Shown here in pieces: positions 1 to 4,667 of a stretch of 64,000 nt of DNA (position 1 is its first letter; every line of letters begins with the position of its first letter). The notes below the pieces were generated by a model that saw nothing but the letters and a program-made list of their open reading frames with translations, searched no databases and was not told the origin of the DNA. Both the position numbers and the translations under genes were made by a program. The DNA lies in contig CAVXVB010000009.1 of assembly GCA_963765205.1 (NCBI GenBank), positions 672,001 to 736,000 of the forward strand, written 5' to 3'. This DNA is from an uncultured Verrucomicrobiae bacterium (GTDB taxonomy: Bacteria > Verrucomicrobiota > Verrucomicrobiia > Opitutales > JABDGR01).

Positions 1-855
1 CACTCCAAAGCAGATATACGCAAAACTCTGTGTGCCTTTCCACCCTGAAGGCGTCAATATATCTGACAACCCCATAGCAATAAATCTTGGAGACAGAGTC
101 CAGTTTTCTCATCTCCTCAATTTCGCCATCCTCAAGGAGTCCGTCAAGTGCTCTGGGGATCCCAAATTTTTGACCCGGCCCCAAGGTAAAATTGCTTTGC
201 TCTGGGCTAACTGTGTCCCGAAAATTAAAATTCTCCGGTATGGGGTGAGAAAGTTTGTCGGCAAATATAGCGATCTGAACTTTATAGGCCGGGGTTGCAC
301 CAGTGTTTTTAATGAGAGGGGTGAATTGAAAACGTTGAATAAGCTGCACTCCTCCTTTGGGTTTTTCGGGGGCATCCGTTTTAGTATCCAAGGGGTATGG
401 TTGGATTATTCGTTGCTCCAAAACGTCTATTTTTACGATGCTGATATACGCCCGCAACTGCCTTTCGGCAGAGCGGGCAGTCTGAACCATCCAATAAATC
501 TGAAGACTACCAACGATGCCGCCGACGATAACCAGAGCGAAAGTCAAATAGACCATCCAAGTGTCAGTCCATTTAGGCTTGTCCCCGGTCCCGTCCCCGT
601 CCCAAAGATGTTATTATAGGAGTTTTGATTTCCTGCTGTGCCATGTTCCTGATTGGGTGCGGAACCTATCGCTTGGCTGGCAGGAATTTGATTTCTGGCG
701 GTGTTATTTTCTGCTGTGGATTGAGCTTGGCTTACTTGGGCACTTTCGGTCTTTGGTGGGGTTGGATTTGACGTGCCCGAATCCGCTGTCCCTGTCTGCC
801 CATACACCTGCCCACAGGCCAAGCAGGCCAAAAAAACAAGTGTCCTGAGCTTCAT
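1..855 (-). CDS. Hypothetical signal-peptide/TM protein, runs off the left edge; apparent frameshift near 585
   Basis: ATG at 855 gives MKLRTLVFLACLACGQVYG plus a low-complexity linker. Adding one G in gggacggggacgggacc joins an open frame the ORF track missed: KPKWTDTWMVYLTFALVIVGGIVG...AERQLRAYIS...IKNTGATPAY...YCYGVVRYIDAF...HTEFC, open to position 1. Confidence 0.65.
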
Positions 856-955
856 GCACAAGGAGCCGTAACCGAGGGGATTGCTGGCGACAACCACGAA
901 ATCCGGCGTTGACACCCTGACGGGTAACGGTGAACTAAGGGGGCGATTCCCGGCC

Positions 956-1855
956 ATGAAAAACCACCTTGTCTTGGCGGTCTTGCTCGTTCTTATCTTG
1001 GGCGCGGTGACCGCCCCCTGCCGTGGTGCGGTGACAGATCCCCAGCTTGATGCTGCCATTGAAACCGACTTTCGGGATTACCACAGTGCCAAGGGCGATG
1101 TCATAAAGGCCCGGCTCATTGAACTGAACGGTAAAACCGCCGTGATTGAAAAGCAGGGGTCAACGGACAATTTTGGCAAACTCATCCATTACAGCGTGGC
1201 TCTGGACACTTTTTCAGCCGACGACCAAGCCCACATTCAAGACCTCGGACTGCAGGCGGCAAAGGCTCGGGAAATCGAAAAGCAAAAGGTCTTGATCGTC
1301 GGCAAGGTAATTTCGGTTGCCCCGGACGGCATCATTCTGGATTCCGTTGTGGATACTGATAATCCGCCTACCGGGATGGATGGCTATGATAGATGGGTGC
1401 TTGTGAGTAATTTGCAAAACTATGTTTATACTGGTGGCCAGATGATTGACCCATCAAAGGTGTTTCAGTGTTCTTTAATTTTCACAAAAGAGGCATACAA
1501 AGTTCTTAACGGGCCGGTTACTGCCAGCCCGGACGGGCATAGGCCGGCTGATGCGATTCAGAGGCTCGCGCAAGCCATCAAGACCACCACCGACCTTAAC
1601 CGATTGATTGATGTTAATTCTATGTATCGCGGGCGGTTGCCTGAACTAGAAGACGCCATTGCGCCACGAAAAACGGGCCTGTTTTTTATCGCCGGGAAAT
1701 TTGATGGCGTGGTGGATGATCAAATTTACGGGGGCATCTTCTATCCCTGTGGCACGATGCAATATGGCTCCGCTGACAACGCCCGGCGCACGGTGGCCCG
1801 GTATGCGGACACCCCGCAACTGGCCATGCAGTTATCCCCAGCGGCAAAGCCGTAA
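956..1855 (+). CDS. Secreted protein with N-terminal SHD1-like domain
   Basis: Signal peptide MKNHLVLAVLLVLILGAVTA; FRDYHSAKGDVIKARLIELNGKTAVIEK...VALDTFSADDQAHI matches the SHD1 pattern common in PVC proteins. Confidence 0.6.
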   Translation: MKNHLVLAVLLVLILGAVTAPCRGAVTDPQLDAAIETDFRDYHSAKGDVIKARLIELNGKTAVIEKQGSTDNFGKLIHYSVALDTFSADDQAHIQDLGLQAAKAREIEKQKVLIVGKVISVAPDGIILDSVVDTDNPPTGMDGYDRWVLVSNLQNYVYTGGQMIDPSKVFQCSLIFTKEAYKVLNGPVTASPDGHRPADAIQRLAQAIKTTTDLNRLIDVNSMYRGRLPELEDAIAPRKTGLFFIAGKFDGVVDDQIYGGIFYPCGTMQYGSADNARRTVARYADTPQLAMQLSPAAKP

Positions 1856-1967
1856 GTCGGAGGGTCCGGGGGCGGTAAATTTTTGATATGGCGGACCCCC
1901 GCCATTAGGTGTTTCATTGTCGGCAAACCAATAACCACCGACAACCACCGAGAACCGAAGCCCAAAG

Positions 1968-2237
1968 ATGGGAAAGCTAGGAGCAAACCAAAAGAATTTG
2001 AGCGTGAGCATTGACCAGAAATGGTGGAATGATATTCAGGCGTTGGCTGATTTATACGACAATATGAGCGTTGCTCGTTACGGCCGGCTTATCATCAGGA
2101 AATGGTGGATAGGGGGCCGATTGGACTTGATGAAGGACCCCGATTTAATGAAGGCAACAAAGGTGGAGGAAGCGGCTAGGAAGGCTGAAATAAAGAAACG
2201 CGGGCGTCGCAGAAAGCCGAAAATAAAGACTACGTAG
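1968..2237 (+). CDS. Small basic protein, possible ribbon-helix-helix DNA binder
   Basis: KNLSVSID strand followed by two predicted helices; Lys/Arg-rich tail. Confidence 0.5.
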   Translation: MGKLGANQKNLSVSIDQKWWNDIQALADLYDNMSVARYGRLIIRKWWIGGRLDLMKDPDLMKATKVEEAARKAEIKKRGRRRKPKIKTT

Positions 2238-2370
2238 GCTTAGGTGGTATTTGCTTAAAAGAGACGCTTTGGAATTGAACGCATGGAGCGCAGTGGTGCG
2301 CTTGAACGCGCGGCCCCATGTCGGGGCGTTTGTTCGCCATTTTTCCAACCACAACAATTTATGAAAAAAA

Positions 2371-2400
2371 CAACCCCTGACGCGCAAACGTCAGGGGTTG
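2371..2400. repeat. Perfect 12-bp hairpin
   Basis: caacccctgacg-cgcaaa-cgtcaggggttg, preceded by an A-run (could terminate minus-strand transcription). Confidence 0.75.
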
Positions 2401-2418
2401 AAATCTACCAGCATTTAT

Positions 2419-2489
2419 GGGCCAGCATGGTCGCTTCCTTGCACCGGAGGAAGTCTCGGAGGCGGGTTCGACTCCCGCATGGTCCACCA
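2419..2489 (+). ncRNA. tRNA-like / tmRNA tRNA-like-domain mimic (71 nt, encoded CCA)
   Basis: Acceptor GGGCCA/TGGTCC with G3:U70, discriminator A, then CCA; perfect T-arm GCGGG-TTCGACT-CCCGC; no D-stem; internal hairpin gcttcct/aggaagt. Confidence 0.6.
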
Positions 2490-2502
2490 TTTGAAAGTTT
2501 TT

Positions 2503-2575
2503 GGGGCCGTAGGTTAATCGCCAGACCGCCCGAGTCTACACCGAGGAAGTCCGGGTTGGAACCCCGGCGGCTCCA
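2503..2575 (+). tRNA. Degenerate tRNA/pseudo-tRNA, Ala-type acceptor, anticodon CTA in canonical register
   Basis: 73-nt cloverleaf spacing: GGGGCCG/CGGCTCC, D-stem GGTT/GACC, anticodon stem only 3/5 paired with loop GTCTACA, T-arm CCGGG-TTGGAAC-CCCGG. Confidence 0.55.
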
Positions 2576-2599
2576 TCCACTTTCAGGGCGAACGGTAGC

Positions 2600-2779
2600 C
2601 TAGCTCTGGGCAGCCGCAAGCAAAATCTTACGGCTCCATTCCGAGGTGTCCTGACCCTCCTGCTTGGCCTTGTTGTCCACGGCCTGCCGCTCCAGCTTGG
2701 TCAGCCGGAGATGGAGACCGTGCGATCTGGCCTGTCCACGGGGGAGCCTGGGCCTGCCTATTTTGGGTTTGGCACTCAT
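2600..2779 (-). CDS. Small RHH/MobC-NikA-like DNA-binding protein divergent from the transposase
   Basis: MSAKPKIGRPRLP...LHLRLTKLERQAVDNKAKQEGQDTSEWSRKILL (GRP motif plus RHH pattern). Confidence 0.65.
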   Translation of the reverse strand: MSAKPKIGRPRLPRGQARSHGLHLRLTKLERQAVDNKAKQEGQDTSEWSRKILLAAAQS

Positions 2780-2808
2780 ATATTTCTTTCTGTAGAACAA
2801 AAATTCTC

Positions 2809-2837
2809 TTGCATTATCCTGCTTAGTGTGCTACATT
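2809..2837 (+). promoter_or_regulatory. Putative sigma70 promoter of the transposase
   Basis: TTGCAT-17 nt-TACATT with extended TG, 21 nt before the ATG at 2859. Confidence 0.5.
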
Positions 2838-2858
2838 AAGGCAACAACAAAAAACACC

Positions 2859-3692
2859 ATGCCCAACAACCTTCCATTCGACAAACAGGTCAGCGTCATC
2901 TCCATGCTCACGGAAGGTGCCAGCATCCGGGGCATCGAACGGATGACAGGCGTCAACCGGAACACGATAATGAGCCTCGGCTCCCGCGTGGGCCAAGCGT
3001 GCGCGGCCTACATGGATGAGCGGCTGCGGGGCCTTAACTGCCAACGCATCGAGGTTGACGAGCTATGGGCGTTTGTGGGCAAAAAGCACGCCCAGCTACG
3101 GCCCGGCGACTACCAGAAGGGCTTTGGTGACGCCTACACGTTCGTGGCCTTAGACGCGGACACCAAACTGGTTCCGGCCTTCCTGGTGGGCAGGCGGGAC
3201 GCGATAACGGCCCAGGTCTTCATGCAAGACCTCTCGGAACGGCTGACCCGGCGGGTGCAACTCTCGACTGACGGGTTCAATGCCTATGAGAACGCGGTGG
3301 AACTGGCCTTCGGGGCCGAAATTGACTACGGCATGATTGTAAAAACCTACTCCGGCCCGGTGGAAGAAGGCCCGCGTAAGTATAGCGCCCCGGAAGTGGT
3401 GTCCGTGACCAAGCTGCCGATGAAGGGTCGCCCGGATGAGGGCAAGATTTCCACCTCGTATGTCGAGAAGCAGAACCATACGGTGCGGATGCACTGCCGC
3501 AGGCTGTCCAGGTTGACCAATGCCTACAGCAAGAAGCTGGAAAACTTTGAGGCTGCGGTGGCCCTCCACTTCGCCTATTACAACCTCGTCAAGTTCCACG
3601 GCACAATCCGCTGCACCCCGGCGATGGCGGCAGGTGTCGAACGCTCACCCCTCACTGTCAAAGACCTCGTTTTCTTCTCCTACCAGCAATAG
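2859..3692 (+). CDS. IS1-family DDE transposase (single ORF, HTH + DDE)
   Basis: EGASIRGIERMTGVNRNTI HTH; IEVDELWAFVGKK, LSTDG and STSYVEKQNHTVRM...RLTNAYSKK catalytic motifs; TPAMAAG tail. Confidence 0.9.
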   Translation: MPNNLPFDKQVSVISMLTEGASIRGIERMTGVNRNTIMSLGSRVGQACAAYMDERLRGLNCQRIEVDELWAFVGKKHAQLRPGDYQKGFGDAYTFVALDADTKLVPAFLVGRRDAITAQVFMQDLSERLTRRVQLSTDGFNAYENAVELAFGAEIDYGMIVKTYSGPVEEGPRKYSAPEVVSVTKLPMKGRPDEGKISTSYVEKQNHTVRMHCRRLSRLTNAYSKKLENFEAAVALHFAYYNLVKFHGTIRCTPAMAAGVERSPLTVKDLVFFSYQQ

Positions 3693-3885
3693 GGATTGCA
3701 GAAAAAACAAAAGTGTCTTACAAGATTTTCATCCAAAATCCGGATCTCGCCCAACCATGAAAACCGTTGAAACCAAAATAGTTTTTGAGCCTGAAACCAA
3801 ATCACTCAAGGCATTCCTTTACTACACCGCGAAGGCATATCTGGCGATTGATATTCCCCATGTCGTTTGCGCGGTGAACGTGCTG

Positions 3886-4230
3886 TCATTTTCCTATTTT
3901 TATTTTTTTGGATATAATGCGGGCCAACTCACCTTTTTCAAATATGGTCTCTTCTTCCTGAATTGTTATGCGGTTGGGCTTCCTTGGCCCAAAAAACTCG
4001 AAGAGGCACTCAGCAAGTTTCTCGCCGGTTTTTTCGCCAAACTTTTTAGCCCCCGCCACTCCTCCCACCGTTAAGACAAAGAACACCGCACTCTCTACTG
4101 CACCAAACGACTTTGCGGCCCTGACCTTCGGGCCTTTTATTGAAACACCCTCCGGCCATTGCACCGTTGCATCCAGCGTCAACGACCGCCTGTTTATATC
4201 CCTCAACTCAATGATGATTTCTTGATTCAT
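3886..4230 (-). CDS. Hypothetical passenger protein (114 aa)
   Basis: MNQEIIIELRD...RIISKKIKIGK, globular-looking, lower GC. Confidence 0.5.
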   Translation of the reverse strand: MNQEIIIELRDINRRSLTLDATVQWPEGVSIKGPKVRAAKSFGAVESAVFFVLTVGGVAGAKKFGEKTGEKLAECLFEFFGPRKPNRITIQEEETIFEKGELARIISKKIKIGK

Positions 4231-4299
4231 GGCAAAACCCGGCAGACTGCCGCGAAACCAACACCCCCACAAGGGTAAATTCCCAACCAAGAATACCCC

Positions 4300-4605
4300 A
4301 TGAACGACCCCGCTTATCTTGCGTTCCTGACGAAGGCTATCAAGGCAACGCATGGCTGCGGGTCGCGCCATGTCGAGTCCGTGGCGGTCAAGGAGACCTT
4401 CCAGGGCAAGACCGTCTGGGAGGGCGACGTGGAGGTATTTGACCTCATCGGCCACCCCAAGGCCAAGCGGTGCTATGCGTGGGCCTACGACGGCGAAGCC
4501 GGGGGCCGGGCCATTGCCGTGCTGGAACTGCCACCCGTAATCTCGCCCATAACTGCGGTCCGGGTGGGCATCATCGGCGAGCGCAAGGCCATGCGGAAAA
4601 ACTGA
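4300..4605 (+). CDS. Conserved-looking hypothetical protein at the element end
   Basis: HGC..HVESV.V.E.FQGKTVWEG.VEVFDL.GHPKAKRCYAW; strong GC3 codon bias. Confidence 0.75.
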   Translation: MNDPAYLAFLTKAIKATHGCGSRHVESVAVKETFQGKTVWEGDVEVFDLIGHPKAKRCYAWAYDGEAGGRAIAVLELPPVISPITAVRVGIIGERKAMRKN

Positions 4606-4633
4606 ACCCGAACGATATTTGTTAAAAATGATT

Positions 4634-4652
4634 TTCAAATTAAGACACTACC
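4634..4652 (-). repeat. Putative right terminal inverted repeat of the IS1-family element
   Basis: Reverse complement GGTAGTGTCTTAATTTGAA begins GGTA like IS1-family ends and coincides with the composition boundary. Confidence 0.6.
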
Positions 4653-4667
4653 CCCCAGCCGTGGCGC

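Follow-up and report, generated by a model that had tools for sequence, protein, structure and literature searches.

A tRNA-like gene in an IS1-family element as a candidate private frameshifting tRNA for the element's own transposase

The informative feature of this locus is a cloverleaf tRNA-like gene (unit 2) and its match to the codons of the neighboring transposase, rather than the smaller RNA (unit 1) to which an earlier note on this DNA had drawn attention. Judging from sequence, we put it at about an even chance that unit 2 is a private frameshifting tRNA that would, by prediction, carry alanine and work at GUA codons of the element's own transposase. The earlier note had described unit 1 alone, as a minimal tmRNA-like RNA lacking an mRNA-like domain, and had missed the second tRNA-like unit, which begins 14 nt downstream. 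Its view of unit 1 as an Ala-identity mimic in IS1 cargo was borne out; its suggestions of tmRNA ancestry and of novelty as an mRNA-less tmRNA were not. Unit 1 is likely the accessory partner in a pair of tRNA-like genes, a passenger that was captured or arose by rearrangement.

The features discussed below lie in the window, that is, the whole 64,000-nt stretch of DNA analyzed.

1..4652, unstranded: IS1-family cargo element of 4,756 bp, its left end 104 bp before the window (G000:C9:671897); recognized by inverted ends, target duplication, PF03400 and a GC dip
2371..2400, unstranded: perfect 12-bp hairpin that follows an A-run and, on the minus strand, resembles a terminator (z = -7.05)
2419..2489, plus strand: unit 1, a D-stem-less TLD-shaped RNA of 71 nt with an Ala acceptor and encoded CCA; recognized by acceptor and T-arm pattern and fold
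2503..2575, plus strand: unit 2, a cloverleaf tRNA-like gene (Rfam tRNA, 38 bits; cut-off 29)
2600..2800, minus strand: NikA-like (RHH) small gene (PF21983, E 1e-5, just below cut-off)
2859..3692, plus strand: IS1-family transposase, a single ORF of 277 aa (PF03400)
3339..3342, plus strand: GTA site 1, codon 161 in frame 0, the sole in-frame GTA of the window transposase
3376..3379, plus strand: GTA site 2, in the +1 frame
3380..3383, plus strand: GTA site 3, in the +2 frame, overlapping the invariant Tyr175 codon; a third four-base step here regains frame 0 at Ser176
4300..4605, plus strand: orfX, about 100 aa, a core gene of the IS1 clade
4635..4660, plus strand: right inverted end (4635-4652) and target duplication (4653-4660), from end comparison

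An IS1-family element with a tRNA-like pair

The element is bounded at G000:C9:671897 and 676652, and the 8-bp target duplication CCCCAGCC flanks both ends. It has the DDE_Tnp_IS1 transposase, terminal inverted repeats and 8-9 bp duplication class of the IS1 family. Inverted ends, duplication and transposase all lie around unit 1, in agreement with its earlier placement inside IS1-type cargo. Plasmid relatives of the transposase share 44-47% identity with it, three of four being annotated 'IS1 family transposase'. The RHH gene points away from the transposase and towards the tRNA-like pair; it has relatives in 46 loci. orfX was found in 60/60 scored loci, usually directly 3' of the transposase stop; it has no Pfam match, and its atlas neighbors are without names. 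A tie between orfX and the tRNA-like unit was rejected, orfX being present in 31/31 and 29/29 loci, unit or no unit. A toxin-antitoxin pairing was likewise rejected: HicAB, a zeta-toxin domain and an HNH domain each occur just once among 77 cargo ORFs, and these ORFs include no recurring tRNA-targeting toxin or nuclease.

By its gene content, the host appears to belong to Verrucomicrobiota. Elsewhere in its genome, IS1-type end motifs recur six more times, and another complete transposase (C5, 43-45% identity) has CAA at codon 161; the 700 nt upstream of it hold no tRNA-like unit. An array of aberrant tRNA genes, seven or more in number, lies at G000:C9:1287772-1288740, about 7 kb from an IS1 remnant that is 86% identical to the window's transposase.

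The acceptor of unit 2 is identical to that of the host tRNA-Ala(TGC). Its loop carries a Val-type TAC at 2537-2539, in an anticodon arm that is 1 nt too long, and at the elbow C19:G56 replaces G19:C56 (1/29 aligned rows). Both units are of the 7/5 rather than the 8/4 or 9/3 type, so neither has the allo-tRNA shape. On a contig from another study, unit 2 is kept with two substitutions and two indels; the adjacent RHH gene is heavily changed, and a different sequence stands at the position expected for unit 1. The sole RNA-library contig spans 2513-2660 only and is no demonstration of transcription.

Relatives of the transposase were gathered from 5/400 other genomes, 79 viral loci and 80 metagenome loci (the best 80 of at least 570). 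Units were detected by a T-arm plus an acceptor, and metagenome loci were scored if they held at least 400 nt upstream. A unit starts at -400 to -300 on the transposase strand in 34/73 metagenome relatives (from these best 80 of at least 570), with a detector background of 0.0006-0.0014 matches per 100 nt. Counted without a filter on G3·U70, 30/34 distinct units at -460 to -80 have both G3·U70 and A73, and the loop is TACA, i.e. Val (UAC), in 29/34 distinct units. Two shapes occur: a cloverleaf and a D-armless form of 67-70 nt. The D-stem-to-anticodon spacing is 9-10 nt in 28/29 cloverleaf units (L125 unparsed) versus 8 in host tRNAs, and the unit 2 family thereby has the extra nucleotide typical of +1 frameshifting tRNAs. 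Stem covariation amounts to 49 and 28 double changes in the A3 and A5 alignments (0/500 shuffles). There is some circularity in these counts, since those stems were a condition of detection and A3 had been preselected for GGG..TCCA. Upstream of many units lies a long hairpin or a promoter-like sequence of the TTGACA type, and a hairpin similar to that at 2371..2400 precedes the unit in many relatives.

Other structures were seen around related transposases. L225, L269 and L288 have a second conserved structured motif just 5' of the unit; it includes a T-loop-like TCCAAA hairpin and has no Rfam match. Distant IS1 relatives (L140, L146, L150, L151, L155, L168, L175, L178, L203) carry other odd tRNAs or small arrays with different loops, 170-460 nt upstream. 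A hammerhead-like match (L128:1395-1449; 27 bits, below cut-off) lies just upstream of a distant IS1 transposase, and a DUF3800-IX RNA (L225:861-925; 54 bits) lies beside its element's outer left end.

Transposase codons and the candidate frameshifting tRNA

Codon 161 is GTA in 39/40 distinct unit-bearing genes, a set from which the mis-sorted CCC-loop case L178 was left out; the exception has a GAC loop and GTT. Column 161 is the most fixed of 58 conserved degenerate columns, four other Val columns standing at 0.46-0.57. Other in-frame GTA accounts for 9/838 Val codons, versus 56/661 in close relatives without GTA161 and 176/1495 in distant relatives; host GTA usage is 4.6%. Out-of-frame GTA elsewhere in the transposase is not depleted. 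Because the depletion is found in frame only, the frame matters. The overall number of GTA per gene (1.47 vs 1.79) was uninformative before position was considered. GTA is depleted neither in orfX (36/358) nor in the RHH gene (16/94).

The GTA codons that follow codon 161 form a ladder through three frames. In the +1 frame, a further GTA[AG] follows 28-43 nt later in 48/50 GTA-161 genes (4.6 expected) and in 0/15 genes of distinct unit-less close relatives that have Ser (TCA/TCG) at 161; it is carried alike by Ser, Gly or Arg codons. If every GTA met in frame is read as four bases, frame 0 is regained at Ser176 in 38/38 distinct unit-bearing GTA genes, where 0.84 would be expected under synonymous recoding. 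With the first step forced, the return occurs in 0/15 Ser-161, 2/14 other close and 2/71 distant genes. Eight of 12 further GTA-161 genes also return, several of them bearing a unit on closer look, and the ladder is likewise found in three loci omitted from the set for want of a gene start. In one case, L289, an element with intact ends and duplication, the sole in-frame stop is codon 162, right after GTA161; the ladder is present and would bypass this stop.

Among close elements, the ladder accompanies the UAC unit in 43/43 cases and is found in 1/28 elements without it, in a set that required at least 1000 nt upstream or a unit seen, that includes four units added by hand after inspection, and whose length rule excluded L252 (ladder, no unit in 705 nt). 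When 39 and 43 loci were searched with covariance models, none of the Ser-161 elements yielded a unit. The ladder is present and a unit was not seen in L212 and L252. The match extends to altered units: L136 has a UAG loop and a CTA ladder to the same serine, starting at its only in-frame CTA, and L227 and L135 have the UAC loop on Ser-type bodies (G73, long extra arm) together with a GTA ladder. Units with GAC loops (L261, L275, L241) and CCC loops (L125, L217) have their cognate codon at or near 157-161 and no ladder there, and no GGG ladder was found for CCC-loop units. Some such ladder occurs in 4/70 distant genes (0.62 expected), with no matching unit seen in L146, L147 and L185. A two-base (-1) ladder was rejected, as 36/38 genes stop after one step. 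On the tree, the loop/ladder label changes 7 times, with 3 independent pairs on supported branches and none opposite (p 0.25-0.5). With 3 pairs this test is without power, and the counts above are therefore counts of related sequences, inflated by relatedness.

These patterns suggest how unit 2 might work. Transcription of the pair would start immediately beyond the hairpin, host enzymes of tRNA processing would trim the transcript, and AlaRS would charge unit 2. G3·U70 is the determinant for AlaRS, which ignores the anticodon arm, and tRNAs with a G·U pair at position 3 or 4 are valylated less well (available text of PMC9976931). Because the anticodon arm is ignored, its distortion, and that of the D-arm in some relatives, would be allowed. 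Typically, +1-shifting tRNAs have one extra anticodon-loop nucleotide (available text of bioRxiv 2020.12.31.424971). Charged unit 2 would compete with host tRNA-Val at GUA161, and some ribosomes would slip +1. After one or two slips, translation would end early, at ~175-185 aa, with the N-terminal DNA-binding part still in the product; a third slip would bring the ribosome back to frame 0 at Ser176, and the resulting isoform would be full-length but without Tyr175. In the window transposase, one slip yields 161+21 aa, two lead to an immediate stop, and three restore the frame with the loss of Tyr175. More copies of the element would mean more unit 2 RNA and a smaller fraction of native transposase, a translational brake driven in trans. 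We infer that the brake on the transposase would in this way be tied to copy number.

Some observations speak against a frameshift. Three consecutive slips should be rare, and the restored product, lacking an invariant Tyr, would have no obvious value. The change of Val161 to Ser in unit-less lineages better fits an amino-acid effect. Moreover, GTA is kept in orfX and the RHH gene, where a general GUA shifter might cause depletion.

An amino-acid effect is the core of a second explanation, in which an Ala-charged UAC tRNA reads GUA161 as a plain triplet, placing Ala (Ser in two relatives) for Val and altering transposase activity, and RNA-less lineages have fixed a small residue. In its favor, the 15 Ser-161 relatives are nested among unit-bearing lineages, and the other in-frame GTA codons have been purged; allo-tRNAs in E. 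coli do place Ser or Ala at codons not cognate to them (available text of PMC5389517). However, this explanation accounts neither for the +1-frame GTA in 48/50 GTA-161 genes nor for the three-step ladder. In addition, Ala stands at 161 in no unit-less gene, and the usual residue in distant relatives is Val or Ile (71/77). We consider recoding without a frameshift unlikely.

It is less probable still that the tRNA causes a -1 slip or stall at GUA-AAR, in which the odd tRNA in the P site would let tRNA-Lys slip back and an early stop would yield a truncated inhibitor. A -1-frame stop within 14 codons, a limit set after the data were seen, occurs in 50/50 GTA-161 genes versus 4/15 Ser genes (27.3 expected). 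NNA_AAG slippage depends on P-site tRNA wobble (available text of PMC5009743), and GTT-AAA in L261 and L275 places a stop directly in the -1 frame. These stops, however, are mostly the TAR within site 2, and the G of that site is conserved whether the codon is one for Ser, Gly or Arg. Site 3 is unreachable by a -1 slip, and the CTA ladder of L136 follows the +1 pattern. A non-ribosomal role, in which the RNA, by pairing with GUAR triplets in the mRNA of the transposase, acts as an antisense or guides cleavage, or else serves as an anticodon-nuclease decoy, is very improbable: several GUA triplets do lie within 45 nt, and the loop could pair over 5-6 bases in some relatives, but the GTA depletion is specific to frame 0, Ala identity would be needless, and the 77 cargo ORFs hold no recurring nuclease or toxin.

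The frameshifting tRNA could also be part of a wider arrangement, to which we give somewhat less than an even chance. Here, an IS1 clade would have a private four-base code in which a tRNA charged by an anticodon-blind synthetase reads NTA-N. Three steps in successive frames would act as a dose-dependent switch between native, truncated and detoured full-length transposase. The units would then be natural bacterial quadruplet-type tRNAs, some of them D-armless, and unit 1 may add a TLD-type helper.

Unit 1 and mini-tmRNAs

Unit 1 has a 6-bp acceptor, GGGCCA/TGGTCC, with G3·U70 and A73, in which position 7:66 is a G·A mismatch. Its T-arm, GCGGG-TTCGACT-CCCGC, is complete, the D-stem is absent, and the minimum-energy fold has a single internal helix of 8 bp. 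Sequence and fold thus agree with the coordinates, acceptor, T-arm, missing D-stem and internal helix first described for it. The prediction of a self-contained Ala-identity tRNA mimic is supported. A strict scan of both strands of the 4.02-Mb genome for the GGG..TCCA acceptor plus T-arm gave four places, namely three tRNA-Ala genes and unit 1; since only tRNA-Ala genes accompany it, unit 1 is more than chance. Its folding z-score is just -0.95, and 30/200 shuffles equal its fold. ARAGORN did not call unit 1 and at a lowered threshold returned noise only.

The 3' end of unit 1 resembles that of a tmRNA, as the earlier note had claimed, insofar as its last 25 nt equal a phage tmRNA end (L029); it differs from the end of the host ssrA, which is intact elsewhere in the genome. 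The conclusion that unit 1 is not an att-site fragment of the host ssrA also stands, because the 3' end has no second genomic match over 21 nt and IS ends bound the element.

No close homologue of unit 1 was found. BLAST of 2340-2620 against 401 genomes of the phylum gave, outside the unit's own genome, just 20-44 nt T-arm matches, and the region gave 4 short matches to plasmids and 6 to phages. Candidates from viral pattern searches were rejected as phage tmRNAs, other units, one ordinary tRNA-Ala, a tRNA-Met-like gene and 10 chance matches, and the one species-genome scan matched a tRNA-Ile. Among 8 contigs from sequencing runs, unit 1 is covered by X1 and X2 only, both from one study that is possibly the source.

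tmRNA ancestry of unit 1 is unproven. Its tmRNA-like features are G3·U70, A73, CCA, the T-arm and the lack of a D-stem; an mRNA-like domain with a tag frame is absent from its 71 nt. On the Rfam tmRNA model (RF00023) it scores 20.6 bits against a cut-off of 47; on the same model host tRNAs reach up to 34 bits (tRNA-Ala 34) and the DS6A mini-tmRNA 43.2. The junction motifs of a TLD take part in SmpB binding. They read GG..GAC and (G/C)AC in the host tmRNA, a phage tmRNA and true TLD-only RNAs, and GGUCGC and GAG in unit 1. In DS6A-type junctions, the D-loop carries GG..(C/U/A)GAC and NAC immediately precedes the T-stem; unit 1 has neither; DS6A and the TLD-only RNAs of phages and other genomes of the phylum keep both motifs. 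The idea of a tmRNA origin is weakened by these junctions and by Ala-acceptor units of related IS1 elements, which also reach 20-38 bits on the tmRNA model.

Three purpose-built models scored unit 1 at 38.0 bits (TLD minis), 25.0 bits (D-armless IS1 units) and 18.2 bits (cloverleaf IS1 units), the TLD-mini model being biased towards unit 1 since it was built from sequences chosen by the same T-arm pattern. On this model, D-armless IS1 units score 21-39 bits and true minis left out of it 43-64. The core of unit 1 is closest to that of unit 2 (12/13 nt), a match equaled by 33/2000 shuffles and the best of 8 comparisons; against any TLD mini, at least 234/2000 shuffles are as good.

These comparisons bear on what unit 1 might be. 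Tentatively, it could be a functionless decaying duplicate or chimera of unit 2. The G7·A66 mismatch, the weak folding z-score and the segment CACC(G)GAGGAAGT common to both units point this way, as do the closest elements keeping unit 2 (L133 and the contig of run X7), which are without unit 1. On the other hand, T-arm, G3·U70, A73 and CCA are intact despite a diverged core, and CCA-encoding Ala-acceptor units without a Val loop occur in other IS1 elements (L127 and the second unit of L227). Rather less likely, unit 1 may be a TLD-only RNA of tmRNA origin, dampening trans-translation through titration of SmpB. The shape of its fold is TLD-like, the 25 nt at its 3' end are identical to those of the phage tmRNA L029, its acceptor is nearly that of a phage mini (L093), and the TLD-mini model is the best of the three; inhibition of tmRNA by a molecule resembling DS6A is cited in the available text of PMC11915505 and PMC4131195. 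This derivation conflicts, however, with both of its junction motifs, with the model bias and the scores just given, with a core nearer to unit 2 than to any mini, and with the lack of a homologue in the genome, plasmid and phage searches. The ideas of an SmpB decoy, a nuclease decoy or a P4 CI-like regulator put forward in the earlier note found no support, including among the 77 cargo ORFs, which are without a recurring tRNA-targeting toxin.

The loop of unit 1 is TTGCACC, with no UAC, and no specific codon ladder was found for its possible anticodons, the few paths present using common codons. A UAC loop with a matching ladder is thus a property of unit 2 and not of unit 1. Unit 1, which retains just the acceptor and T-arm face, is likely alanylated but non-decoding, and the odds that it is functional are about even.

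Like DS6A and the CDS-less plastid and mitochondrial tmRNAs, unit 1 is shorter than 100 nt and has an Ala acceptor, a T-arm, a short internal helix and no D-stem. DS6A differs in keeping GGUCGAC and CAC, and unit 1 sits in an IS beside a second tRNA-like gene. The claimed novelty of an mRNA-less tmRNA is undercut by the phage DS6A, plastid and mitochondrial forms already published (available text of PMC11915505 and PMC4131195). Since mRNA-less tmRNAs are known, unit 1 alone is less novel.

Clear TLD-only mini-tmRNAs were observed in 6/150 other genomes of the phylum, at L294-L299, L309, L310, L312 and L313 (each ~1501-1578). They are 73-78 nt long with encoded CCA, and most have GG..GAC or near and GAC-type junctions. 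Up to three occur per genome, after AT-rich leaders and often right before a gene start, and two precede ORFs that read from sequence as vWA-like or phosphatase-like. These minis are a better test set for the mini-tmRNA idea than unit 1. Phage contigs (L035-L120) hold many G3·U70 units of 57-94 nt without a D-stem, beyond the single published DS6A case (e.g. L046, L054, L064, L093, L103, L109, L117, L118). L300-L303 and L305 are likely tmRNA 3' ends, in which an internal strand ~84-90 nt upstream can complete the acceptor stem.

Known systems and biological meaning

Mismatched allo-tRNAs were described, and a link to transposons suggested, by Mukai et al. (available text of PMC5389517; repeated in that of PMC7609411). 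In the available text of PMC5389517, the supplement contains neither 'IS1' nor 'transpos', and the main text names no IS1 and no match to transposase codons. Those allo-tRNAs are 8/4 or 9/3 with a long variable arm; the units here, L227 excepted, are 7/5, and either their variable loop is short or the D-arm is absent. The supplement's 24 tRNA0 entries, and those of its allo-tRNA entries that were compared, differ in sequence from the IS1 units.

The +1 suppressor tRNAs SufB2 and SufA6 are alike in having an extra anticodon-arm nucleotide and a single cognate codon as shift site. SufJ and hopR1 are further +1 frameshift-suppressor tRNAs. Such suppressors are selected laboratory mutants of host tRNAs, whereas the IS1 units, known here from sequence, are natural and element-borne, with swapped identity and a match to a three-frame ladder.

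In classical IS1 and IS3 elements, too, it is at translation that the balance between full transposase and a short DNA-binding product is set, there by a -1 shift at a slippery run, with host tRNAs, that makes the transposase (available text of PMC5009743). Here, by contrast, frame 0 is already complete, and the shift that we infer would need the element's trans-acting RNA. The proposed brake may be likened to InsA/InsAB' of classical IS1, but would be driven in trans. Passenger-carrying single-ORF IS1 elements share the ends, 8-bp duplication and PF03400 transposase; they differ from the present element in its tRNA-like gene at a fixed place and its matching codons. The literature searched, which mostly excluded subscription journals, contained no report of an IS-encoded tRNA matched to its own transposase codons. 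The system of tRNA-like gene and codons appears to be new in kind.

In practice, annotation mistakes such genes for tRNA-Val, pseudogenes or pieces of tmRNA. The frameshift-suppressor tRNAs known to date are for the most part laboratory mutants; if the reading of unit 2 as a frameshifting tRNA is true, its family would provide a varied natural collection that brings its own test site. Direct tests would then be possible for quadruplet-type decoding, for D-armless tRNAs in bacteria and for the long-standing question of what allo- and irregular tRNAs do, and the units would offer parts for genetic-code expansion. Above the level of the single gene, a transposon would be controlling its own enzyme by means of a decoding-bending RNA, a form of control that we did not find in print for insertion sequences.
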